The notes: generated by a model not told the origin, from the sequence alone. A stretch of 48,128 bases of DNA from a virus (IMGVR_UViG_2529292716_000011); one strand, 5' to 3'. Shown: positions 1,274-41,208, numbered from the stretch's first letter. Numbers and translations are program-made.

Positions 1274-1566
1274 AAATGTCTCCCTGTTTTTTTATGGCTT
1301 ATGCAGTTTGCCATCCATGACGGAACGATACCGTATCCGCCTGTTTAGGTGTGGGCGATTGTAACAGCACGTCAACTGATGTCCAGACGCCCTGATTTGC
1401 TGATTTGATCATAGCCTGGTAATCGCCGCCCTGTAGGCTACTTGATTCTATAGAAACAGAAAAAGGCAAACGCAGCCTTTTCTACATTTTCAGAGTAACT
1501 CCCGCCAGTTGCGAGCAAAAAAGCCGCTACGCTTTAGCTATACGTGCTAATTCAAGAGAAGAGACC

Positions 1567-2499
1567 ATGGACAACGACAAAATTGATCAACACAGCGACG
1601 AAATTGAAGTTGAGAGCGAAGAAAAAGAGCGCGGCAAAAAAATAGAAATAGATGAAGACCGACTCCCCTCCCGGGCGATGGCAATTCATGAGCATATCCG
1701 CCAGGATGGTGAAAAAGAGCTGGAACGCGACGCAATGGCGCTACTGTGGTCAGCCATTGCGGCGGGTCTGTCGATGGGCGCTTCGTTACTGGCAAAAGGG
1801 ATATTTCATGTCGAACTGGAAGGTGTGCCGGGCAGCTTCTTACTGGAGAATCTCGGTTATACCTTTGGTTTTATTATCGTCATAATGGCCCGCCAGCAAT
1901 TATTTACCGAAAACACCGTGACTGCGGTACTACCCGTCATGCAAAAACCGACAATGAGCAACGTTGGCTTACTTATGCGGTTATGGGGAGTCGTGCTGCT
2001 GGGTAATATTCTCGGGACTGGTATTGCTGCGTGGGCATTTGAATATATGCCTATCTTCAATGAAGAAACTCGCGATGCATTTGTCAAAATCGGCATGGAT
2101 GTGATGAAGAACACCCCCAGCGAGATGTTTGCCAACGCGATCATTTCCGGCTGGCTGATCGCCACTATGGTATGGATGTTTCCTGCAGCAGGTGCGGCAA
2201 AGATTGTGGTGATTATATTGATGACCTGGCTTATTGCCCTAGGTGACACCACCCATATCGTGGTCGGTTCTGTTGAAATCCTCTATCTGGTGTTTAACGG
2301 TACGCTGCACTGGAGCGATTTCATCTGGCCCTTCGCACTACCTACTTTAGCGGGGAACATCTGCGGCGGCACCTTTATCTTCGCGTTAATGAGTCATGCA
2401 CAGATTCGTAACGACATGAGCAACAAGCGTAAAGCAGAAGCACGCCAAAAAGCAGAACGTGCGGAAAACATTAAGAAAAATGATAAAAACCCGGCATAA
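1567..2499 (+). CDS. yfdC: formate/nitrite transporter family inner-membrane protein YfdC
   Basis: 310 aa multi-pass membrane protein; recognised as YfdC; lies between mlaA and argW as in E. coli K-12. Confidence 0.85.
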   Translation: MDNDKIDQHSDEIEVESEEKERGKKIEIDEDRLPSRAMAIHEHIRQDGEKELERDAMALLWSAIAAGLSMGASLLAKGIFHVELEGVPGSFLLENLGYTFGFIIVIMARQQLFTENTVTAVLPVMQKPTMSNVGLLMRLWGVVLLGNILGTGIAAWAFEYMPIFNEETRDAFVKIGMDVMKNTPSEMFANAIISGWLIATMVWMFPAAGAAKIVVIILMTWLIALGDTTHIVVGSVEILYLVFNGTLHWSDFIWPFALPTLAGNICGGTFIFALMSHAQIRNDMSNKRKAEARQKAERAENIKKNDKNPA

Positions 2500-2574
2500 A
2501 TGGCGAGGGTTTAAGCAATCGAGCGGCAGCGTACTTACCCCGCACTCCATTAGCGGGTATACTCATGCCGCATT

Positions 2575-2649
2575 GTCCTCTTAGTTAAATGGATATAACG
2601 AGCCCCTCCTAAGGGCTAATTGCAGGTTCGATTCCTGCAGGGGACACCA
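2575..2649 (+). tRNA. argW: tRNA-Arg (anticodon CCU)
   Basis: 75 nt; 7-bp acceptor stem GTCCTCT with AGGGGAC; anticodon stem agccc/gggct with loop ctCCTaa; 3' CCA encoded. Confidence 0.92.
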
Positions 2650-2810
2650 TTTATCAGTTCGCTCCCATCCGTACCAGTCCGCAAAATCCCCTGAATATCA
2701 AGCCTTCCGTATATTCACGGTTCGTCATGGTTCGCGTCAGATCGTTGACAGCCGCACTCCATGACGGGTAAAAAGTGGATAAAATAATTTTACCCACCGG
2801 ATTTTTACCC

Positions 2811-3968
2811 ATGCTCACCGTTAAGCAGATTGAAGCAGCAAAGCCGAAAGAAAAACCATACCGCCTTCTCGATGGTAATGGCCTGTACCTTTATGTTCCT
2901 GTATCCGGGAAAAAGGTATGGCAGCTTCGCTACAAGATTGACGGTAAGGAGAAAATCCTGACCGTCGGAAAATATCCGCTTATGACTTTGCAGGAAGCAA
3001 GGGATAAGGCATGGACTGCGAGGAAAGACATCTCGGTTGGCATCGTTCCGGTAAAGGCGAAAAAGGCTTCGTCTAACAACAATTCATTTAGTGCGATTTA
3101 CAAGGAATGGTACGAGCACAAGAAGCAAATCTGGTCAGTAGGCTATGCAACTGAACTTGCCAAAATGTTTGATGACGACATTTTACCCATCATCGGCGGT
3201 CTTGAGATTCAGGATATTGAGCCGATGCAACTGCTGGAAGTAATCCGCAGATTTGAAGATCGCGGTGCAATGGAGCGAGCCAACAAAGCCCGCAGAAGAT
3301 GCGGCGAGGTTTTTCGTTACGCTATTGTCACCGGAAGGGCTAAATATAACCCGGCACCTGACCTTGCAGACGCCATGAAAGGATACCGCAAGAAGAACTT
3401 CCCGTTCCTTCCAGCAGACCAGATGCCTGCATTCAACAAAGCACTGGCAACATTTTCAGGAAGTATCGTATCGCTCATTGCGACCAAAGTTTTACGCTAC
3501 ACAGCCCTAAGAACAAAAGAGCTTCGTTCCATGCTATGGAAGAACGTCGATTTTGAAAACAGGATTATCACCATCGACGCCAGTGTGATGAAGGGACGCA
3601 AAATTCATGTGGTCCCGATGTCAGACCAGGTGGTTGAACTTCTCACTACGCTAAGCTCAATCACCAAACCAGTCTCAGAGTTTGTTTTTGCCGGGCGCAA
3701 CGATAAGAAGAAGCCAATCTGCGAGAACGCGGTATTGCTTGTGATCAAACAAATCGGCTATGAAGGTCTGGAAAGCGGTCACGGATTCAGGCATGAATTC
3801 AGCACGATTATGAACGAGCACGAATGGCCTGCTGACGCTATTGAAGTGCAGCTGGCACATGCCAACGGCGGATCTGTGCGCGGTATTTACAACCATGCTC
3901 AGTATCTCGATAAGCGCAGAGAAATGATGCAGTGGTGGGCGGATTGGCTTGATGAAAAAGTGGAGTAA
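2811..3968 (+). CDS. intS: P4-type tyrosine integrase (IntS-like)
   Basis: Integrase translation immediately downstream of the tRNA 3' end; start chosen at ATG 2811 (MLTVKQIEAAK, 385 aa); the ORF track's upstream start 2775 gives 397 aa. Confidence 0.85.
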   Translation: MLTVKQIEAAKPKEKPYRLLDGNGLYLYVPVSGKKVWQLRYKIDGKEKILTVGKYPLMTLQEARDKAWTARKDISVGIVPVKAKKASSNNNSFSAIYKEWYEHKKQIWSVGYATELAKMFDDDILPIIGGLEIQDIEPMQLLEVIRRFEDRGAMERANKARRRCGEVFRYAIVTGRAKYNPAPDLADAMKGYRKKNFPFLPADQMPAFNKALATFSGSIVSLIATKVLRYTALRTKELRSMLWKNVDFENRIITIDASVMKGRKIHVVPMSDQVVELLTTLSSITKPVSEFVFAGRNDKKKPICENAVLLVIKQIGYEGLESGHGFRHEFSTIMNEHEWPADAIEVQLAHANGGSVRGIYNHAQYLDKRREMMQWWADWLDEKVE

Positions 3969-4114
3969 TCCGGACCGTACTTCTTTATCCAGGCATAAAG
4001 GCTGTGGGTAGTGATATCGAGACGTGTTGCAACGCTGGCAACAGAATAACCGCGATCAACAACCTGTTTGACTGCTTCAGTTTTAAACTCTTCGGGATAA
4101 CGCTTACCGCTCAT
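3969..4114 (-). pseudogene. IS3-family transposase OrfA, N-terminal fragment (truncated)
   Basis: HTH-type OrfA start (ATG at 4112-4114); similarity ends at KKYGPD, after which the frame reads the antisense of the intS 3' end. Confidence 0.6.
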
Positions 4115-4177
4115 GGGCACCTCTCTTTAAGCCATCTTAAATGACTCTGAGGTGTCTGTTAAACCCGTGGCGATTCA

Positions 4178-4630
4178 AAACTGCGTGTTACGTTCGCCCT
4201 GGACTGTTGCGATCGTGAAGCCATAGACTGGGCCGCAAGCACGGGAGGTTACGATAAAGCGACAGTGCAGGATGTCATGTTAGGAGCGATAGAAAAACGC
4301 TTTGGCGATAAAGTACCGGAACAGTCCATCCAGTGGCTGACAGATAACGGTTCAGCGTATAGAGCGCATGAAACACGGCAGTTCGCCAGAGAGTTGAATC
4401 TGGAGCCCTGCACAACGGCAATCAGCAGTCCTCAGAGTAATGGAATGGCAGAAAGGTTCGTGAAAACGATGAAGGAAGACTACATCGCGTTCATGCCGAA
4501 ACCGAATGTAAGAACGGCATTGCATAATCTTGCAGTGGCGATCGAACATTACAATGAAAACCATCCGCACAGTGCGCTGGGTTATCGCTCTCCGCGAGAA
4601 TATCGACGTCAGCGGGTAACGTTAACTTAA
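4178..4630 (+). pseudogene. IS2-group transposase OrfB, C-terminal fragment (no start codon)
   Basis: In-frame similarity to IS2 InsD begins near 4178 ([14 protein letters not shown]) upstream of the first Met at 4265; DDE-domain C-terminus present. Confidence 0.65.
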
Positions 4631-4671
4631 GATACACCCCCTGTCTGGAAATAAGGGGGCAAGAACAATGA

Positions 4672-5414
4672 TCAGATTCCCTGGTGAGTAAGAATTTTAC
4701 TTTCTGAACTCCTCTGAGAGTATTGACTTGGAGAAACACCAAAATAACGTCTAAATACATAAGTAAAGTATGAGACACTGGCATAACCACAGACCTTAGC
4801 TACTTTACTAATAGGATAACAACGAGTGCTGAGTAAATATTCAGCCATTTGCATCCTCTCATCAAGTATGATCTTACTGAATGATACCCCCTCTTCTTTC
4901 AATTTCATCTTTAGTAAACTTTCGCTGAGATATAATCTTGATGATATATCCTTAAGACGCCATGGTGCAGATAAATCCGTATGAATAATCGTTTTAACTT
5001 TAGCCCTGTGCTTTTCAAACATCCAAACAGAAATACTCCAAATTGTTTTTCAGAAGAAAATGCAGAGAGACATGTAAAAGCAATAGACTCATCAAAAATT
5101 TCTATGTATTCAGCACAGTGATTAGCCCAACTAATTAATCCTTTAATTAAACTGAAGTCAGCAAAGTTTATTTTTAAATAAGATAGATATTCCCTACAAT
5201 CAGAAATATCCCTTAAGTTATTAGCTTTCAAATAGCGACTAATAAACTCAGCGCCAAAATCCGCCACTATCACTCTTTCAGGATATGTCAGGAAAAAATC
5301 TCTAGAGCTAGAGTCGACAAGTACAGATGAACCTCTCTCCAGAAACACACTCTCTTTTCCGAAATAAACATCAAAGGACTCCAAAATCAATATAACTGAA
5401 CATGTAGTTGCCAT
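4672..5414 (-). pseudogene. AraC/XylS-family regulator (AppY/YdeO/GadX-like), frameshifted
   Basis: N-terminal ORF 4911-5423 and C-terminal HTH ORF 4672-5022 overlap in different frames; C-terminus matches the AraC HTH signature (WRLKDISSRLYLSESLLKMKLKEEG...CGYASVSYF); AT-rich. Confidence 0.6.
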
Positions 5415-5444: not shown

Positions 5445-5948
5445 TTATTGATAGTGTTTTATGTTCAGATAATGCCCGATGACTTTGTCATGCAGCTCCA
5501 CCGATTTTGAGAACGACAGCGACTTCCGTCCCAGCCGTGCCAGGTGCTGCCTCAGATTCAGGTTATGCCGCTCAATTCGCTGCGTATATCGCTTGCTGAT
5601 TACGTGCAGCTTTCCCTTCAGGCGGGATTCATACAGCGGCCAGCCATCCGTCATCCATATCACCACGTCAAAGGGTGACAGCAGGCTCATAAGACGCCCC
5701 AGCGTCGCCATAGTGCGTTCACCGAATACGTGCGCAACAACCGTCTTCCGGAGACTGTCATACGCGTAAAACAGCCAGCGCTGGCGCGATTTAGCCCCGA
5801 CATAGCCCCACTGTTCGTCCATTTCCGCGCAGACGATGACGTCACTGCCCGGCTGTATGCGCGAGGTTACCGACTGCGGCCTGAGTTTTTTAAGTGACGT
5901 AAAATCGTGTTGAGGCCAACGCCCATAATGCGTGCAGTTGCCCGGCAT
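5445..5948 (-). CDS. insB: IS1 InsB frame (expressed as InsAB' by -1 frameshift)
   Basis: 167-aa ORF; A6C slippery motif present upstream. Confidence 0.9.
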
Positions 5949-6142
5949 CCAACGCCATTCATGGCCATATCAATGATTTTCTGGTGCGTACCGGGTTGAG
6001 AAGCGGTGTAAGTGAACTGCAGTTGCCATGTTTTACGGCAGTGAGAGCAGAGATAGCGCTGATGTCCGGCAGTGCTTTTGCCGTTACGCACCACCCCGTC
6101 AGTAGCTGAACAGGAGGGACAGCTGATAGAAACAGAAGCCAC
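5867..6142 (-). CDS. insA: IS1 InsA
   Basis: 91 aa, [16 protein letters not shown]...; zinc-finger/HTH protein of IS1. Confidence 0.92.
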
Positions 6143-6946
6143 TGGAGCACCTCAAAAACACCATCATACACTAAATCAGTAAGTTGGCAGCATCACCAGC
6201 CTTCTTGAGGCTACCACCTGTTTTCAGGTGTCATTCAGACGTGATTTGCCCCAGATTGGGAAAGCACGCTTTTTTCTCAGCTATCGTCCTCTTATTTTGC
6301 CGTTACATTTCTTTTTGCATTCTAATGATTAATTTACAATAATAATATCGGTAATTATTGAGTAATAATAAATTAATTATTGCAAATGTAATTTAATTCC
6401 ATCTTCGCGTTATATTCCAATCTTTAATCTCCGCATGGAACAAGTTGCATGCGTGACTATATTAAGACGACTTATAACCACCAAAACATTTGCTTTGCAA
6501 GCAAAAACAGTGACCATTGACTCTAAGAAAATTCCGATCTATTGTTAGGGTCATCAAAGTTACTTAACAGTATTCCGAAATGAAAATACAAAGCAAGCTA
6601 ATTGTCTTATTAAACATTATTATTGCATTTATATTATTTGAGCTTTTAGCTCAAAAATTTGGTTTGAGTACATTATTTTAAAGCAAGATAAACAATATCG
6701 GGCACTCTAGTTTTTATAATTAACAATTAAACGTCCATAAAATGTTATTTACTTTTCTTCGCTATTGTCATATCTTAATATAGTGGCTTACGCCACTCTA
6801 CTTTCATCACATTTTGTACGTTTATGTACTCGCCATGAAGCTCTTTCATGGCGATTTTTTATTCTTAATCCAAGAACATACTCCCTACCTATAGCAAAAT
6901 CACTTTTTTAACAAAAGAATAACGTATTTAGGTAATCATTACGAAT

Positions 6947-7528
6947 TTACCCTATAGGTGCTACTGGCCATTCAATATCCGGTGCAGTTGATGTATCAAC
7001 ACGGTTCAGCAACACCCGATACTTTTTCCAAGCTTCCAGCAACAAGGTTTCTTTCTCCGTTGCGATCTCCAGATCCACAGCATCCTGAAGCGGCGCTATA
7101 TGCTCACTGGCTACCTGCATCAGGCTGTTTTTTGTTTCTTCCGCCTCCCGGATCCGGAACAGTTTTTCTGCTTCCGTATCCTTCACCCAGGCTGTGCCGT
7201 TCCACTTCTGAAACTCCCCTTCCGGGGATAACCAGGTGACATTTTCCGGTAATGAGCCGAGTTCAGAAATAAATAACGCGTCGCCGGAAGCCACGTCATA
7301 AACCGTTTTACCCCGATGATCTTCAACGAGATGCCACGATGACTCATCACTGTTGAAAACAGCCACGAAACCAGCCGGAATATCTGGCGGTGCAATATCG
7401 GTACTGTTTGCAGGCAGACCTGTATGAGGCGGAATATATGCGTCACCTTCACCAATAAATTCATTAGTTCCGGCCAGCAGGTTATAAATTTTTATGGTCC
7501 GTGCTTGTTCACTCATTCTGAATGCCAT
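6947..7528 (-). CDS. tfa: tail fiber assembly protein Tfa
   Basis: 193 aa; lambda Tfa-like translation; start overlaps the stf stop. Confidence 0.85.
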
Positions 7529-10500
7529 TATGCGAGCCTCACAATATAGTTAAATGCGATGTTTTTGACGGTGTTTTCCGCGTTACCAGCAGCGTTAACG
7601 GTGATGGTGTGTCCATGTGAACCAATCGCAACAGAGTGCGTATGAGCACCAATACCGACAGTATGCGCGTGTGCACCCGCAGATGCTGCTGTGCCGGACA
7701 GTGAGTGTGTATGGTTTCCTTCTGAAGATGATTTACCTACCCATTGGGAGGTGCCACTGGTTAATGAGCCACTGATACCAACCTGATTAGTCCCGCTAAC
7801 TTGAGTACTCCCTGCCGGAAACATTCCAGTAGGTTGACTCCCGCTATTCGTTCTGGGCCCAGTCTGACTATGTTGGTGGGCCCCAGCTGAACTTGTAGAG
7901 CCGCTCAGACTGTGCGTATGCGCCCCGGTGTTATTCGTGGATTTAGTGCCGTAATCAAACGACGATGTGGTTTTCGTCCCCAAATCCGTACTGGATGCGC
8001 TGGCGCTGTGGGTGTGCGATTTAATGCCATCCTGTTCCTGAGACAATACGGCACGACCACTGGCGGGCTTGCCCTTAATCGTCCAGCCACGCATATCAGG
8101 GATCACGCCTGACGGATAAGCGGCTGCAAGTTTCGGGTAAGCAGATTTGTCAAAAGTCTGCCCCTGCATCAGGGCATAACCAGACGGAACGGTATCTGAT
8201 GGCCACGGGATTGGTGCACCGACTGGATAAAACTCTGCAGGAGGATGAGCCGAGGTGTAAAGCTGCGCCCACGGCGACCAGTTTGCGTCGGTCGTATCCC
8301 GTCGTGAACGAATAAATGCCGGAGCATGAGCACCGCTTGTACCACTCCAGCCGATGAGTAACTCACCTTCGCCAACGGCTGTCATCCCTTTCAGGTGAAT
8401 GATATTTCCATACGCTGTTGGATATCCGTTGTTATACACCTCGTATAACTCAAGACCTGCTGCCCCCTGCGTATTGTCTGTCAGCGCGGCTACCCGACCT
8501 TTTGAAGCCAGATTAACTGATGATACTGCTGTTCCACCTGACGGTAGCGCCCCGATCTCTGATGCCGTTGGCTTATTTCTGGAGTTATAGTCCCTTCGCC
8601 AGCCAGGTGAATAATCTGTTCCGTGATTAATATAGGTAAACTGGGCGTTGGTTGTTCCGCCACCGCTGGATGTGGTCGGAGTGGTAATGCGGATCGTCAT
8701 CGCTGACTTTATCCCCATTACTTCAATGACAGCTCCGGCGAGATGAATATTACCGCAGCCAGTATCAGTAATGATTTTATTATTGCCATAAGACCAGGAA
8801 CCCTTGCACATCCAGTATGGATGGTTAAATGCTCCCTGAGAATCCAGCCACTCGATAAACTGTGCAGTCGTCCAGTTTCCTGTTGTTGTGCTTACTGACC
8901 CACCGAAGGCACGGCAGGCACCAATATTTTTCGTAAAGGTGTCTTTGCCAGGGATATCCGCACCGTTCTGATCTTTCTGCAGACGTTTCTCAGCATTGTC
9001 ATTGGCTGCTTTTACTGCCTTTGGCGTTGCCGCCAGCGTTTCAGACGTGCTGTTGGTCGCGCTGCTTAGCTGGATTATCCCTTTCTGTGCTGTCGTTGCA
9101 TCCTGTGCGGTGTATTTCCCGTTAGCCAGGTCATACGCGGCCTTAACGGCTTTTGGTGTTGCCGCCAGTGACTCGGAAGTGCTGTTAGTCGCACTACTGA
9201 GCTGTACTATCCCCTTTTTCGTCGTGCTCGCATCCTCAAGCGCCACGGCGGATGCAATATCCTCTGCCCGTTTTGCCGCTGTCTCAGCGCGCGTTGCTGC
9301 AGATTCCGCCGTACTTTTGCTCTGAGCTGCTGCCGTCGCACTACCAGCAGCCTCTGTCGCCTTCGTGGATGCCGTCGTGGCGCTGCCCTTCGCTGCTGAC
9401 GCCTGTCTGGTCGCCTCATCTTTTGAAGCAGACGCCGATGATGCCGATGACGCCGCCGAACTGGCGGACGATGCGGCAGCCGTTTTTGAGGATTCTGCAC
9501 GGGTTTCCGACGCTTTCGCGTTCGTTTCGGATGTCTTCGCTGCGGAAGCTGACCTCGCTGCTGCCGTGGCCTGCTCAGTGGCTTCGCCAGCCTTCGTTGT
9601 GGCTGTTGAAGCGGATGATGCGGCGCTTTCTGCCGATTTTCCGGCGGCGGTGGCACTGGCTGAGGCCTGCCCGGCACTTGTTGACGCGGCGCTGGCAGAC
9701 GACGCAGCCGCTGTTTTTGAGCCTGCCGCAGCTGAGGCACTCTGTCCCGCTGCCGTTTCAGAAGACCTGGCGTTCGTCTCGGACGTTTTGGCCGCCTTCG
9801 CAGAATTTGCAGCCGCCGTCGCCGAGGAAGCTGCGCTACTGGCGCTTGATGATGCGTTCGTTTCTGATGATTTTGCCGCCTCTTTTGAAGCCGACGCATC
9901 CCGGGCTGAGGTGGCAGCTTCTGACGCTTTCGTGGTCGCGGTGGATGCAGAAGTGGCTGCTGATTGTTGTGACGCTGCCGCATTCGTTTCTAACGTTTTC
10001 GCCGCACCGGCACTGGTAGCCGCCGCGCTTTTTGAGGACTCTGCAGCGGCAGCACTTTTTGAGGCTTCAGTGGCCTTTGTTGATGCCGTTCCTGCGCTGG
10101 AAGACGCTGACTGAGCCGACGAAGCGGCCTGTCCGGCTGACGTGCTGGCTGCACGTGCTGAATCTGCAGCATCAGTCGCATGGGTTGCCGCCTCACGGGC
10201 TGATGTGCTGGCATCGCTGGCTGATTTCTTCGCGGCTGCCGTGTTCTGTGCCACCGCGGACGCGTTACGCGCCACCTCTTCCACCATCAGCTCAAAACGG
10301 CGCAGTGCCTCCGGACGGGCATCATCCTCCGTCATGGCACCGAGAAAATCATTCAGCGTACCGGGTCGGGAATCTTCATACACGGTGATGGTCCCGGCAT
10401 GTGACGGCGGGAATCCTTCCACCAACAGAATAACGCTGTACTGACCGTACTCAACGTCCATGCTGTAACGCCCGGCTTCATCCGGATTTTCTGAGGCCAG

Positions 10501-10617
10501 CGTGTTCACCACCACCGTGGTGCTGTTACGTTTTGCTTTCAGCTGGATTGTGCAGTTCTGTACCGGTTTTCCTGTGCCGTCTTTCAGTACACCTGAAATC
10601 TTTACTGCCATATTCAC
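7528..10617 (-). CDS. stf: side tail fiber protein Stf with expanded Ala/Ser/Thr-rich repeat shaft
   Basis: 1029 aa; lambda Stf-like N-terminus, long low-complexity repeat core, His/Gly-rich C-terminal receptor domain (HTHS, HAHT motifs). Confidence 0.8.
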
Positions 10618-10662
10618 CCCACAAAAAAGCCCGCCTGAACCGGCGGGCTGTCATAACACTGT

Positions 10663-11192
10663 GTTACCTGGCTAATCAGAATTTATAACCGACACCCACG
10701 ATGAAACCGTCAGTGCGCCAGAGACGTGTTGCTGTGGCGACCGTCATCACTTCCGGTCAGCACATCGTGCGTTTTCCCCTTATTGTCAGTTACGCGGATA
10801 TAATCCCCGGAAAAAGTCGACACACGGCTGTAAGCCACACCCGCCATCGCATACGCGCTGAACCATTCATTCACGCGCACAGACGGCCCCGCCATCACGC
10901 TGAACCAGCGGTTACGCACGGAATCTTCATGCCAGCGGGTATCGCTGTAACGGGTCAGCTGGCGATTCTTGTCTCCTGCATAGCTGAATGACGTCACCAG
11001 CCCCAGCGTATCCGTAAACTCATAACGGTATTTCACGTTAATCCCGTTCAGATCATCACTGCCGGGAACGTTGGTCCGGGCATGAAGATACCCCGCGCTC
11101 AGCGTGGACTGATGTTCAGACGCCCATGCAGGCGCACCGGATACGGCCAGGCAAATGGCTGCGGACAAAATGGCTGCACAAACTTTACGCAT
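10663..11192 (-). pseudogene. lom: lom outer-membrane protein gene, disrupted by an internal deletion/frameshift
   Basis: 160-aa ORF matches the lambda Lom N-terminus up to ...HSNTSLA then stops; the Lom C-terminus (WRTDGFIVGVGYKF) is encoded just downstream in another frame. Confidence 0.7.
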
Positions 11193-29555: not shown

Positions 29556-30075
29556 TCAGCAACCCCGGTATCAGTTCATCCAGCGCGGCTGCTTTGTTCA
29601 TGGCTTTGATGATATCCCGTTTCAGGAAATCAACATGTCGGTTTTCCAGTTCCGGAAAACGCCGCTGCACCGACAGGGGGATCCCGTCGAGAATACTGGC
29701 AATTTCACCTGCGATCCGCGACAGCACGAAAGTACAGAATGCGGTTTCCACCACTTCAGCGGAGTCTCTGGCATTTTTCAGCTCCTGTGCGTCGGCCTGC
29801 GCACGCGTAAGTCGATGGCGTTCGTACTCAATAGTCCCTGGCTGGAGATCTGTCTCGCTGGCCTGCCGCAGTTCTTCAACTTCCCGGCGCAGCTTTTCGT
29901 TCTCAATTTCAGCATCCCTTTCGGCATACCATCTTATAACGGCGGCAGAGTCATAAAGCACCTCATTACCCTTGCCACCGCCTCGCAGAACGGGCATTCC
30001 CTGTTCCTGCCAGTTCTGAATGGTACGGATACTCGCACCGAAAATGTCAGCCAGCTGCTTTTTGTTGACTTCCAT
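29530..30075 (-). CDS. Nu1: terminase small subunit Nu1
   Basis: 181 aa; lambda gpNu1-like with winged-HTH N-terminus. Confidence 0.93.
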
Positions 30076-30280
30076 TGTTCATTCCACGGACAAAAACAGA
30101 GAAAGGAAACGACAGAGGCCAAAAAAGCCCGTTTTCAGCACCTGTCGTTTCCTTTCTTTTCAGGGGGTGTTTTAAATAAAAACATTAGGTTACGGCGAAG
30201 AAGAACGGAAACGCCTTAAACCGGAAAATTGTCATAAATAGCGAAAACCCGCGCGCCTTCCGCCCCGTAACCTGTCGGAT
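30076..30280. other. cos region (cosB and cosN; cohesive-end 12-mer at 30254-30265)
   Basis: Flanks match the lambda ends (cgcgggttttcgctatttatga... and ...gatccgacaggttacg); the 12-mer reads gggcggaaggcg on the phage top strand instead of gggcggcgacct. Confidence 0.75.
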
Positions 30281-30301
30281 CGCCGGAAAGGACCCGCAAA
30301 A

Positions 30302-30316
30302 TGATAATAATTATCA
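30302..30316. promoter_or_regulatory. perfect 7-1-7 inverted repeat TGATAAT-A-ATTATCA (Fur-box-like)
   Basis: Exact palindrome about 150 bp upstream of the ylcI-like start, in AT-rich DNA between cos and the first plus-strand gene. Confidence 0.35.
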
Positions 30317-30464
30317 TCTACATGTCACAACGTGCATCTACGCCATCAAACCACGTCAAATAATCAATTATGACGCAGGTATCGTATTAATTGATCTGCA
30401 TCAACTTAACGTAAAAACAACTTCAGACAATACAAATCAGCGACACTGAATACAGGGCAACCTC

Positions 30465-30698
30465 ATGTCAACGAAGAACAGAACCCGCAGAACAACAACC
30501 CGCAACATCCGCTTTCCTAACCAAATGATTGAACAAATTAACATCGCTCTTGTTCAAAAAGGGTCCGGGAATTTCTCAGCCTGGGTCATTGAAGCCTGCC
30601 GCCGGAGACTGTGCTCAGAAAAAAGAGTTTCGCCTGAAGCAAACAAAGAAAAGAGTGACATTACTGAATTGCTCAGAAAACAGGTTAGACCAGATTGA
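30465..30698 (+). CDS. small basic protein, YlcI-like (DUF3950-type)
   Basis: 77 aa; Arg/Thr-rich N-terminus; resembles the DLP12 YlcI family from memory. Confidence 0.55.
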   Translation: MSTKNRTRRTTTRNIRFPNQMIEQINIALVQKGSGNFSAWVIEACRRRLCSEKRVSPEANKEKSDITELLRKQVRPD

Positions 30699-30755
30699 AG
30701 CAATTTAGATAATCGTGCAGACTACGCCCCCTCATATCACATGGAAGGTACTACA

Positions 30756-31166
30756 ATGGCTCAGGTTGCCATTTTTAAACAAATATTCGATAAAGTGCGA
30801 AATAATTTAAACTATCACTGGTTTTATTCTGAACTAAAACGTCACAATGTCTCACATTACATTTACTATTTAGCCACAGAGAATATTCATCTTGTTCTTG
30901 AAAACGATAATACGGTTTTAATAAAAGGACAGGGTAAGGTTGTAAATGTAAGATTTTCAAAAAATAAATGCCTTATAGAAGCCACCTTAAAAGGATTCAA
31001 ATCAGGAGAGTTATCATTTTACGAATACAGGAAAAATCTTGCTACAGCAGGGGTTTTCAGATGGATTACAAATATCCACGAAAACAAAAGGTATTACTAT
31101 ACCTTTGATAATTCATTACTCTTTACTGAGAACATACAGAACACTACACAAATATTTCCGCACTAA
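30756..31166 (+). CDS. ybcV: DUF1398 family protein, YbcV-like
   Basis: Start at [12 protein letters not shown] (136 aa; ORF track start 30741); translation resembles DLP12 YbcV. Confidence 0.7.
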
Positions 31167-35401: not shown

Positions 35402-36168
35402 GGTGATGCTGCCAACTTACTGATTTAGTGTATGATGGTGTTTTTGAGGTGCTCCAGTGGCTTCTGTTTCTATCAGCTGTCCCTCCTGTTCAGCTACTGA
35501 CGGGGTGGTGCGTAACGGCAAAAGCACTGCCGGACATCAGCGCTATCTCTGCTCTCACTGCCGTAAAACATGGCAACTGCAGTTCACTTACACCGCTTCT
35601 CAACCCGGTACGCACCAGAAAATCATTGATATGGCCATGAATGGCGTTGGATGCCGGGCAACAGCGCGCATTATGGGCGTTGGCCTCAACACGATTTTAC
35701 GTCACTTAAAAACTCAGGCCGCAGTCGGTAACCTCGCGCATACAGCCGGGCAGTGACGTCATCGTCTGCGCGGAAATGGACGAACAGTGGGGCTATGTCG
35801 GGGCTAAATCGCGCCAGCGCTGGCTGTTTTACGCGTATGACAGTCTCCGGAAGACGGTTGTTGCGCACGTATTCGGTGAACGCACTATGGCGACGCTGGG
35901 GCGTCTTATGAGCCTGCTGTCACCCTTTGACGTGGTGATATGGATGACGGATGGCTGGCCGCTGTATGAATCCCGCCTGAAGGGAAAGCTGCACGTAATC
36001 AGCAAGCGATATACGCAGCGAATTGAGCGGCATAACCTGAATCTGAGGCAGCACCTGGCACGGCTGGGACGGAAGTCGCTGTCGTTCTCAAAATCGGTGG
36101 AGCTGCATGACAAAGTCATCGGGCATTATCTGAACATAAAACACTATCAATAAGTTGGAGTCATTACC
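35402..36168 (+). mobile_element. IS1 copy 2 (767 bp) with 8-bp target duplication CCAATTTT; one A missing from the frameshift A-run
   Basis: Terminal repeats present; CCAATTTT at 35394-35401 and 36169-36176; slippery run is A5C where copies 1, 3 and 4 have A6C, so insA reads on to 99 aa. Confidence 0.93.
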
Positions 36169-36558
36169 CCAATTTTTTACGTACGTAAACCACTAAATGA
36201 TATTTGCGAGAATGCTACCGAGTATTGAAAACACCACTACAAATACATAAGCAAATCCCAACAAATAACCAACAAATAATTTCCAGTGTTATTTTTAGCC
36301 GGTTTAAATTGAACCTTCAAATTATAGAGCACTTATAAATAACAGCCGTTAATATAAATTGGCTAATAGATTTATTTTTATTCAGTCAAGAGCCATGAAT
36401 AGGATTCGATAGAAAAAAGTTCAGATAAAAATAGAGATCTACTTCACAAATCAAACGAGAAACCAAAACTTACATCTTGAAATAATCACATTGATTAGAT
36501 GAATATTTATCGCGCAATGACATCATTTTTTAATAATAGTTCAAAAAAAGGGCTCACG

Positions 36559-37641
36559 ATGAAAAAATTAACAGTGGCAATTTCTGCTGTAGCTGCATCA
36601 GTACTGATGGCGATGTCTGCTCAGGCAGCTGAAATTTATAATAAAGACAGTAACAAGCTGGATCTGTACGGGAAAGTTAATGCTAAGCACTACTTCTCCT
36701 CTAATGATGCAGATGATGGTGATACTACTTATGCCCGTCTTGGCTTCAAAGGTGAAACCCAAATCAACGATCAACTGACTGGTTTCGGTCAGTGGGAATA
36801 TGAATTCAAAGGCAACCGCGCTGAATCTCAAGGTTCCTCCAAAGATAAAACCCGTCTTGCCTTCGCTGGCCTGAAATTCGGTGACTACGGCTCCATCGAT
36901 TACGGCCGTAACTACGGTGTAGCATACGACATCGGTGCGTGGACTGACGTCCTGCCAGAATTCGGTGGTGACACTTGGACTCAAACAGATGTGTTCATGA
37001 CTGGTCGCACCACTGGTGTTGCAACTTATCGTAACAACGACTTCTTTGGTCTGGTTGATGGTCTGAACTTTGCTGCTCAGTATCAGGGTAAAAATGACCG
37101 CACTGACGTAACTGAAGCTAATGGTGATGGTTTCGGTTTCTCCACTACTTATGAGTATGAAGGATTCGGTGTAGGTGCAACCTATGCTAAATCTGACCGC
37201 ACTAATAATCAGGTTATCTACGGTAACAACAGCCTGAATGCATCTGGTCAAAATGCTGAAGTATGGGCAGCTGGTCTGAAATATGATGCGAACAACATCT
37301 ATCTGGCTACCACCTATTCTGAAACCCAGAACATGACTGTTTTTGGTAATAACCATATTGCCAACAAAGCACAAAACTTCGAAGTAGTTGCACAATATCA
37401 GTTCGACTTCGGTCTGCGTCCGTCCGTTGCTTACCTGCAATCTAAAGGAAAAGACTTGGGTGCGTGGGGTGATCAGGACCTGGTTGAATATATTGATGTA
37501 GGTGCAACCTATTACTTCAACAAAAATATGTCCACTTTTGTTGATTACAAAATCAACCTGATTGATAAGAGCGATTTCACGAAAGCATCTGGCGTTGCTA
37601 CCGATGATATCGTTGCTGTAGGTATGGTTTACCAGTTCTAA
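36559..37641 (+). CDS. nmpC: outer-membrane general porin (NmpC/OmpD-like), intact
   Basis: Start at [23 protein letters not shown]; porin translation with C-terminal aromatic residue; sits between Q and the lysis cassette on the opposite strand as in DLP12. Confidence 0.85.
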
Positions 37642-37771
37642 TTTGATTACTAAAAGATATGTTGCGGGAGGCTTTGCCTCCCCAACATATAAGTGGCTCC
37701 CTCAAGCCACTTCCTTTAGGAGCACAACCTTGCTTCTAACTATATAAACCTTCTGTTATATATTACCCTTT

Positions 37772-37803
37772 ATTTTTGGGGGCGTTGCAACGCCCCATTT
37801 TTA
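37772..37803. terminator. bidirectional rho-independent terminator between porin and Q
   Basis: Perfect palindrome ggggcgttgcaacgcccc flanked by T-runs on both sides. Confidence 0.7.
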
Positions 37804-37829
37804 ATAATTTTTAGTAAACAATTGGCATA

Positions 37830-38228
37830 TTAATTAGAGTTATTAACAACGATATCCATCTCTAACCGGATATCTAATGCCATTAACATCCCTTCAATTA
37901 TGCCCTCAGCCTTCTGTAACCTTTTCCCGATATAACCATCAGAGCAGCAATGCTTACCTGCCAGTGACATGAATGTCATACCGACTACATAATAATCTAC
38001 TAATAAATCGTGCAAATCGCTGTTGTTCTTTTTCAGACGGGCCATGCACCCGCAAATAATCATCGCGTCATCGTCACAACATTGCGGGCGAGATTTTACT
38101 TTTGAAGTAATTAATCCCTTAAAACCGGCGGCAATGGACGACCAGGTCACATCTTCATGATTATTAGCCGCCCACGCTCCCCAACGCTCAAGAACCATCT
38201 GAATATCACGCATCAACTTACTCCACAA
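37830..38228 (-). CDS. Q: late-gene antiterminator Q (phage-82/DLP12 QuuD type)
   Basis: Cys-rich zinc-binding translation ([16 protein letters not shown]); true start may be the internal MRDIQMV. Confidence 0.85.
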
Positions 38229-39967: not shown

Positions 39968-40345
39968 ATGACCAACAAAGAAAACAAAGATAAATATATT
40001 AACAAGTTCAAGAAAGAGCTTTCAAAATATATACAACCAACTGCTGGAGTGGACATTCAATTATTTAACTCTAAGGATGGTGGTGGTGTAATTAAAGCCA
40101 CTTTGAATAGAAGTGGAAAAAGAAAATCATCTATTGCTGGTAATTTTACTAAATTAGGTGAGGCAATTACCTCGAGTGGGCAGAGGGTTTTTGGTGGTGA
40201 TCTATCAAATGTGAATTTTTACGGAACAAATACGATTTTTGATGGAGATACAATATTTTTAATTAAATCACCTGATTCAGAGGAGTGGTCATCACAAAAA
40301 GCTTCCAAAGACGTAGAGGGCATCGTATTTGGAGGGAAAAAATGA
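39968..40345 (+). CDS. hypothetical soluble protein (125 aa), AT-rich
   Basis: Lys-rich; no signal peptide or TM; no family recognised; opposite strand to the nin genes. Confidence 0.55.
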   Translation: MTNKENKDKYINKFKKELSKYIQPTAGVDIQLFNSKDGGGVIKATLNRSGKRKSSIAGNFTKLGEAITSSGQRVFGGDLSNVNFYGTNTIFDGDTIFLIKSPDSEEWSSQKASKDVEGIVFGGKK

Positions 40346-40427
40346 TTAACATTACTACTAAGGATGCACTCAAGTCAGTGGTGAAGTAAGAGATCTAGTA
40401 ATTCTTCTTGAAACTGATGGAAAAACG

Positions 40428-40769
40428 GTGTCTGATTATTTGCAGCCAATCCCTCCCAAAAAAGATACACACTGGAGCATGATTTTCATTCCGGTAGCAA
40501 TTTATATACTACTTAATCTTGTATACATTATTGCTCACCCATTATTTCCTGAAAAATATCTAAAAACATCAACATCTATATTTCTATTCATTTCCTTCAT
40601 ATTAAGTGCAATAGTAGCATATTTTGTTTTCCATAAGCATAAATCTGCCACTCTATCCATATGCAGCTTAGTGTTCTTAGTGTTAATTGTAGGTGCTAAC
40701 GTAGGGTTTATCAGTTACAGCGACCTAACACAAAAAGCGACGCAAAAATTAGATAGTTTGTCTAAATAA
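40428..40769 (+). CDS. hypothetical small membrane protein (about 3 TM), AT-rich
   Basis: ORF begins at GTG 40428; a better start is ATG 40479 preceded by GGAG; three hydrophobic helices. Confidence 0.5.
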   Translation: MSDYLQPIPPKKDTHWSMIFIPVAIYILLNLVYIIAHPLFPEKYLKTSTSIFLFISFILSAIVAYFVFHKHKSATLSICSLVFLVLIVGANVGFISYSDLTQKATQKLDSLSK

Positions 40770-41208
40770 TTATGTTGCCATGCGAAGTATGCATGGCTGC
40801 ATGTCTGCCTTCCATTTAAAATGGGCTAAGACCTATAACCCTAAATATTATTCTTTATTATCTTCTTTACCACTTCGGTGATGCTGCCAACTTACTGATT
40901 TAGTGTATGATGGTGTTTTTGAGGTGCTCCAGTGGCTTCTGTTTCTATCAGCTGTCCCTCCTGTTCAGCTACTGACGGGGTGGTGCGTAACGGCAAAAGC
41001 ACTGCCGGACATCAGCGCTATCTCTGCTCTCACTGCCGTAAAACATGGCAACTGCAGTTCACTTACACCGCTTCTCAACCCGGTACGCACCAGAAAATCA
41101 TTGATATTGTCAGCGCCAGTGATATAAGACGGTAATTCGCCATTTGGATTGTCCGCTCCACCCAACATGTTGTTTCCTTAAGGTTCTCACACCAGAAAGG
41201 ACATCAAC

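Follow-up and report, generated by a model that had tools for sequence, protein, structure and literature searches.

The minus strand of the window, a 48,128-nucleotide stretch of viral DNA (IMGVR_UViG_2529292716_000011) considered at its full length, codes for what is very probably (at about 0.9) an intact side tail fibre (Stf) of a lambda-like prophage, belonging to the common E. coli type. The "low-complexity" centre of this lambdoid Stf would be a strictly phased coiled coil with an Ala/Ser core and a conserved length. The architecture is already known and the rod is present at its commonest length, so that this is an ordinary feature. The gene and its immediate surroundings are as follows:

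7528..10611, minus strand: stf coding sequence, 1027 aa from the ATG at 10611, with the stop codon at 7528-7530
6947..7528, minus strand: tfa, a tail fibre assembly chaperone of 193 aa (Pfam Caudo_TAP, PF02413, E=4.6e-44)
10623..10650, minus strand: intrinsic-terminator-like hairpin followed by a T-run, between lom and stf, recognized from sequence

The mechanically called stf frame comprises 1029 codons (7528..10617, minus strand) and opens with a GTG at 10617, 6 nt upstream of the ATG. The true start is most likely the ATG at 10611, which yields the protein of 1027 aa, because lambda and the RefSeq relatives begin at the Met of MAVKISG and because a G-rich stretch abutting the GTG would serve as ribosome-binding site for the ATG two codons downstream. 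We therefore advise that the start of stf be annotated at 10611. The gene order here is J-lom-stf-tfa, as it is in lambda and nine relatives, and the start of tfa overlaps the stf stop codon. The terminator-like hairpin and T-run stop roughly 12 nt short of the stf ATG, and the records of mEp460 and 434 mark a rho-independent terminator at the corresponding site. The domains and repeats within the gene, with ORF residues counted along the 1029-codon frame, are arranged in the following manner:

10330..10611, minus strand: N-terminal collar domain, ORF aa 3-96 (Pfam PF08400, PDB 9e7m_Ta, Ur-lambda gpStfN)
9226..10317, minus strand: proximal coiled-coil rod, approximately ORF aa 101-464, with 50 heptads from aa 115 (periodicity, AF2, lambda homology)
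9388..9702, minus strand: block of 15 heptads (105 aa) within the rod, found in most E. coli prophage Stf proteins and absent from lambda Stf (alignment)
9431..9455, minus strand: 9-nt microrepeat inside the rod, 2.8 copies, encoding ASS units (TRF, indels of relatives)
9103..9234, minus strand: PF03406 phage tail fibre repeat, copy 1, 44 aa, ORF aa 462-505 (Pfam)
8971..9102, minus strand: PF03406 repeat, copy 2, ORF aa 506-549, absent from an allele class of 983 aa (Pfam)
8443..8997, minus strand: domain similar to the phage Mu tail fibre S/S', ORF aa 541-725 (PDB 8ju3_A and 5yvq_A)
7531..8232, minus strand: distal tip of the T4 gp37 type, ORF aa 796-1029 (PDB 2xgf_A, E=1e-81; Pfam Collar, PF07484)
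7687..7914, minus strand: hypervariable "head" of the tip, about ORF aa 902-977 (structure match, allele comparison)

The Pfam domain PF08400 (prophage tail fibre N-terminal) covers Stf aa 3-136 with E=1.4e-71, and residues 1-94 of the "Tail fiber protein" 9e7m_Ta match the collar with E=1.3e-51. Residues 1-94 of gpStfN form a 12-copy collar in Ur-lambda (PMC12617516), and the nearly identical collar domain encoded here would dock the fibre on the tail at the junction of the tail tube and the tip. Together, the 1029-codon frame, the PF08400 match and the conserved gene order bear out the original prediction of a side tail fibre gene longer than that of lambda; the length of 774 aa quoted earlier for lambda Stf is likewise that of the intact protein in record KT232076.

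Ala, Ser and Thr make up 70-78% of Stf residues from about 121 to 460. Autocorrelation over aa 101-465 gives a residue identity of 0.40 at lag 7 (z=10.5 against 500 shuffles), with z between 7.7 and 10.5 at every multiple of 7 up to 56 and peaks nowhere else. The period resolves into 50 heptads of the form A-x-x-S-A-x-x, which run in a single unbroken register from VARNASA to VALEDAS, with Ala at position 1 in 47/49, Ser at position 4 in 36/49 and Ala at position 5 in 35/49. The recurrence of Ala at positions 1 and 5 produces the 3-4 spacing of coiled-coil core positions, and neither a 2-residue nor a Gly-X-Y period was found in the rod by residue autocorrelation or in the heptad register. The periodic shaft rich in Ala, Ser and Thr that had been anticipated is thus present, while the "SETNA"-type repeat units in which it had been described give way to a degenerate heptad coiled coil that has no repetition at the level of DNA. 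AF2, run as a monomer on the single sequence without an alignment, models ORF aa 100-468 as a single helix without a break, at a mean pLDDT of 76 and with dips below 60 at two places. The Ala/Ser/Thr-rich centre can be equated with a known proximal coiled-coil rod because the homologous segment of Ur-lambda gpStf, residues 102-393, is a coiled coil: combining cryo-EM, cryo-ET and AF3, Yu et al. (Sci Adv 2025, PMC12617516) divide that protein into a collar (1-91), a linker (92-101), the proximal coiled coil as a trimeric bundle (102-393), a hinge, a distal domain and a receptor-binding domain. The Ur-lambda virion carries four such trimeric fibres, which bind OmpC and speed adsorption (PMC12617516). 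By analogy, we infer that the region here also forms a trimeric coiled-coil rod. Its approximately 350 residues, at the canonical helix rise of 0.148 nm per residue, would extend for about 52 nm, some 15 nm more than the rod of lambda.

The rod is masked as low complexity in tblastn searches against phages; hence, its length was compared through DNA searches and marker motifs, and is defined as the distance between the conserved markers EEVARNAS and AEDIASAV. This distance is 346 aa both here and in the nine long relatives fetched, which include the phages PhiR68_2, mEp460_ev081, SPF_0923 and PhiR29_1 and the E. coli strains SE11, ST70, 100181 and Z1323HEC0016. These nine proteins total 964-1024 aa and differ solely downstream of the rod. 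A rod of 346 aa is likewise found in 92 of the 120 closest protein clusters, which are 92-95% identical. At the DNA level, at least 80% of the 1116-nt rod sequence is covered in 3578 of 5426 complete E. coli genomes, or about two thirds, and three quarters of a spread sample of records (45/60) carry the same 1116-nt span as a single ungapped piece at 89-98% identity, K-12 Rac stfR and O157:H7 among them. The isolated phages with a match to the rod DNA are PhiR68_2, mEp460_ev081 and SPF_0923; these and Rac StfR, a protein of 1120 aa in its K-12-type form that likewise has 50 heptads, share an identical rod length at 95-98% DNA identity.

In lambda, 241 aa separate the two markers, that is, 105 aa or 15 heptads fewer. 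In the alignment this deficit is one contiguous gap, and the remaining, shared rod differs by few substitutions, with the same rod end and the same first PF03406 repeat. On these comparisons, most E. coli prophages have a rod of the length described here, and lambda is the short outlier, a variant with a deletion of 15 heptads. The 253 residues by which the present Stf exceeds that of lambda divide into 105 in the rod and 148 in different distal modules, so that the gap in length appears to comprise one 15-heptad block and a different set of distal modules, not a recent repeat expansion. The description of the shaft as "greatly expanded" consequently does not hold. Other departures from the majority length include a rod of 34 heptads in one E. 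coli strain and a fragment from phage 500465-3, whose span, judged from the alignment only, is 651 nt (31 x 21) shorter and in which no reading frame with the N-terminal AVKISG motif was found. The large rod gaps thus amount to whole heptads, 15 and 16 and perhaps 31 of them (315, 336 and perhaps 651 nt). The more general proposition that all indels in the rod are whole heptads was rejected, as 27/120 clusters have indels of 1, 2, 3 or 6 aa.

Immediately after the rod, PF03406 is recognized in two stretches with a score of 125.3 bits, against a cut-off of 22. These two 44-aa units, aa 462-505 and 506-549, account for the block of roughly 40 aa that had been noticed to occur twice. They share 30/44 residues (68%), with a DNA identity of 63% overall and 74% over the best 107 nt. 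As 17 of the 30 common residues use different codons and the DNA identity is only 63%, the duplication is old. Copy number differs among relatives: two units are present in 85 of the 120 closest clusters and one in the other 35. The 983-aa class equals the present protein minus exactly 44 aa, its remaining unit being a hybrid that opens as copy 1 and closes as copy 2; PhiR29_1 also has a single copy, with its junction elsewhere in character. Both forms are as would be expected from independent events of unequal recombination between the two copies. Lambda and StfR each have a single copy, as against the two here, followed by different distal modules, which in StfR make up a different distal half. 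According to literature cited in PMC3945230, the PF03406 motif has long been known as a site of exchange between tail fibre genes, and the pattern of copies and junctions, with one copy and then different modules in lambda and StfR, fits that role. The one or two 44-aa repeats could accordingly be pictured as a conserved joint for the swapping of distal modules.

The segment beyond this joint resembles the tail fibre S/S' of phage Mu. ORF aa 492-725 match it in the structures 8ju3_A (E=1.4e-69 for the stretch) and 5yvq_A (E=6e-16), at high identity, the match running through a repeat of the PF03406 type and some 185 residues of the next domain. The Mu-like domain is internal here and not the fibre tip, and Mu has an invertible G-segment, of which none was found in this case: no inverted repeat involves stf, leaving no sign of an invertible segment of the Mu G, P1 C or e14 P type, and the ORFs checked downstream of tfa, namely an IS1, a split AraC-like gene and an integrase, include no invertase. 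Some relatives have a recombinase of the PinQ/PinR type after tfa. In lambda, a hinge and a distal segment stand in the place of the Mu-like domain. PhiR68_2 and mEp460_ev081 have two PF03406 repeats, a Mu S'-like domain and a gp37-like tip as here, and their Stf proteins are 93% identical to this one outside the masked region.

The fibre ends in a tip made up of a collar domain, a needle in which the His-x-His motif occurs seven times, and a C-terminal stretch of 11 residues. ORF aa 796-1029 align to tip residues 28-242 of the crystallised T4 gp37 fragment (2XGF) through both the collar domain and the His-x-His motifs. The head segment differs, being about 19 residues longer here, and the remainder of gp37, a beta-structured shaft, is unrelated. 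T4 uses gp38 and gp57A rather than a Tfa-type chaperone. Lambda Stf has the same gp37-like tip with its His-x-His motifs and C-terminal 11 residues, and a Tfa chaperone encoded downstream; it is set apart by a different head and by small indels in the needle. Most of the divergence from close relatives is held in the approximately 75 residues of the head, for which at least three alleles exist among relatives that are more than 93% identical overall, PhiR68_2 having one that differs from the allele described here. The same region of the tip diverges between T4 gp37 and its relatives, and receptor specificity has been mapped to it (PMC9659904). We presume, by this comparison, that the head is the determinant of receptor specificity. 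The putative receptor would be a porin such as OmpC and/or LPS. In such a scheme, the Mu S/S'-like domain and the gp37-like iron-needle tip with its hypervariable head would recognise the cell surface, and the Tfa chaperone encoded downstream would fold the tip. For typing or engineering, the host-range determinant to consider would then be the head at 7687-7914 and not the rod.

The unusual composition of the rod invites two other interpretations. Its extreme content of Ala, Ser and Thr, and the action of the BLAST low-complexity filter, which masks the region and leaves 67% coverage in two pieces, could be taken as the marks of a disordered linker or a beta-structured shaft instead of a coiled coil. 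This is exceedingly improbable given that 350 residues keep strictly to a period of 7, with Ala recurring at positions 1 and 5, that AF2 returns a helix, and that the homologous lambda segment is a trimeric bundle or rod by cryo-EM/ET (PMC12617516). The region could alternatively be a recently expanded, unstable tandem repeat of the contingency type, in which gain and loss of units tune the length of the fibre. The existence of length classes (50 heptads here, 35 in lambda and 34 in the one E. coli strain), the large gaps in multiples of 21 nt and the small indels in just over a fifth of the clusters all point in this direction. Among those small indels, the commonest, a gain or loss of 3 aa ("ASS"), falls exactly at the microrepeat at 9431-9455 in the 120 closest clusters. 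A 3-residue shift maps heptad positions {1,4,5} onto {5,1,2}, which are small residues again, and this may explain how such a stutter is tolerated. Against a recent expansion stands the divergence of the units themselves: the heptads are mutually only 39% identical on average when in register, and even the best 42-aa pairs of the rod, with 60-67% identity in protein, have 53-56% in DNA, which we judge to be too low for recent duplication. No exact direct repeat anywhere in the stf gene exceeds 11 nt, and TRF reports just three arrays, all short and weak. Recent tandem expansion was rejected as a candidate on these grounds, TRF and searches of the gene for exact and seeded repeats having yielded no real DNA array. 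The near-identical tandem DNA units with varying copy number that define a contingency locus are lacking in the rod, and are approached, weakly, by the 9-nt microrepeat and the 44-aa unit alone. With the length of the rod also kept in most of the sampled records, an unstable repeat is highly improbable, and the periodicity is, as far as sequence can tell, old, degenerate and maintained by structure. The suggestion that repeat number varies fibre length survives for the 44-aa block, present once or twice, and for the 3-aa microrepeat; slippage in the rod is unlikely at 53-56% DNA identity and with no exact repeat beyond 11 nt. The proposed comparison of copy number among related prophages divides in the same manner, between a rod of constant length in 45 of the 60 records and PF03406 in one or two copies.

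A distinct question is whether this particular allele is real. By exact look-up, the Stf protein is absent from a collection of 15 billion proteins. Its two-repeat middle shows 100% identity, over the stretches concerned, with the class of 1023/1024 aa, and its head allele occurs, among the 120 closest clusters, solely on the one-repeat class of 983 aa; none of these clusters pairs two repeats with this head. An assembly artefact, whether a wrong repeat count or a chimera of two stf paralogues from different prophages of one genome, would account for such a novel junction of modules, and it has a plausible setting in that the rod sequence recurs within genomes (median 2 copies, maximum 7) and many database entries are fragments at contig ends. 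When the N-terminal 131 aa were used to look for homologues, only fragments of this kind were retrieved, hundreds of entries of 113-230 aa from which no rod could be measured; we take the several rod copies per genome to be the cause of short-read assemblies breaking in stf. The earlier description of the gene is accurate, but its reading as prone to misassembly is for the most part unsupported, collapse of the rod being unlikely with 11 nt as the longest exact repeat. For the allele itself an artefact is very unlikely: the frame is intact throughout, each module is 98-100% identical to that of some known allele, the change in combination occurs at the PF03406 repeats, the gene has no internal repeats longer than 11 nt, and stf genes are well documented to recombine in nature (PMC3945230). 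On the simplest reading, the allele would be a further product of natural recombination in a gene notorious for its mosaicism. A further proposal, that it is a new recombinant in which the number of 44-aa joints and the stutter of 3 aa have been selected to tune the reach or hinge of the fibre relative to the central J fibre, is doubtful; if true, fibre length would be adaptive and set by recombination rather than a matter of neutral mosaicism.

The base composition of the rod also has a consequence for gene calling, which concerns the following feature:

9207..10114: three long non-coding ORFs in other frames, at 9207-9983 (minus strand), 9252-10019 (plus strand) and 9365-10114 (plus strand)

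These frames are 258, 255 and 249 aa in length. Spurious ORFs over the shaft had been expected, and they do exist, though their cause lies more in base composition, with low T and few stops, than in the repetition to which they had been ascribed. T makes up 12.6% of the coding strand of the rod, and four of the six frames have at most 3 stop codons in 1115 nt, as against 10-22 stop codons in each of the non-coding frames of the distal part. They are best regarded as compositional artefacts and should not be annotated. The lambda record has an ORF named "orf206b" annotated under the same stretch.

The stf gene for the side tail fibre belongs to a lambdoid prophage, and the window also carries the following features:

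2575-2649 (+), tRNA-Arg(CCT), followed by a tyrosine integrase
2775-3968 (+), tyrosine integrase, named intS in the annotation of the closest E. coli genome
4672-5022 and 4911-5423, AraC-family regulator in two overlapping ORFs, adjoining IS1
5445-6142 (-), IS1 element (InsA and transposase ORFs), ~800 bp past the tail fibre assembly chaperone gene tfa
6000-7000, AT-rich stretch (36% GC) separating IS1 from tfa
10623-10650 (-), terminator-like hairpin with a T-run, its 3' edge ~12 nt 5' of the stf ATG
10710-11192 (-), truncated lom
30001-31000, 36001-38000 and 40001-41000, low-GC islands (36-41% GC)

The tRNA-Arg(CCT) and the intS-type integrase, with mlaA and yfdC upstream of the pair, indicate that the argW/intS integration hotspot directly borders the lambdoid tail genes in the window. 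The AraC-family regulator beside IS1 appears to be split between its two ORFs, and this end of the prophage seems to be degraded or rearranged. In the AT-rich stretch, 6321-6346 pairs with 6616-6641 and 6443-6467 with 6773-6797 as weak inverted repeats, and no ORFs of at least 100 aa were found within 6000-7000.

On the other side of stf, a rho-independent terminator is annotated in phages mEp460 and 434 at the position equivalent to the hairpin. Given its location just before the stf ATG, transcription would seem to require read-through of this element to reach the gene. The product of the neighboring lom is shortened (160 aa versus 199 aa). Compared with lom of phage PhiR68_2, the window copy has lost 83 bp, shifting the reading frame, and a 6-bp direct repeat, CTGGCG, occurs at the borders of this deletion.

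The annotation of phage mEp332 divides stf (locus 1507-4907) into two CDSs, each labelled "hypothetical protein". In the rod DNA comparison, covering the Ala/Ser/Thr-rich coiled-coil part of Stf, the span aligned for mEp332 is 1 nt less than the query, which suggests that its rod contains either a frameshift or a sequencing error. Finally, the low-GC islands stand out against the 50-60% GC of the remainder of the prophage and are possibly moron or cargo genes.
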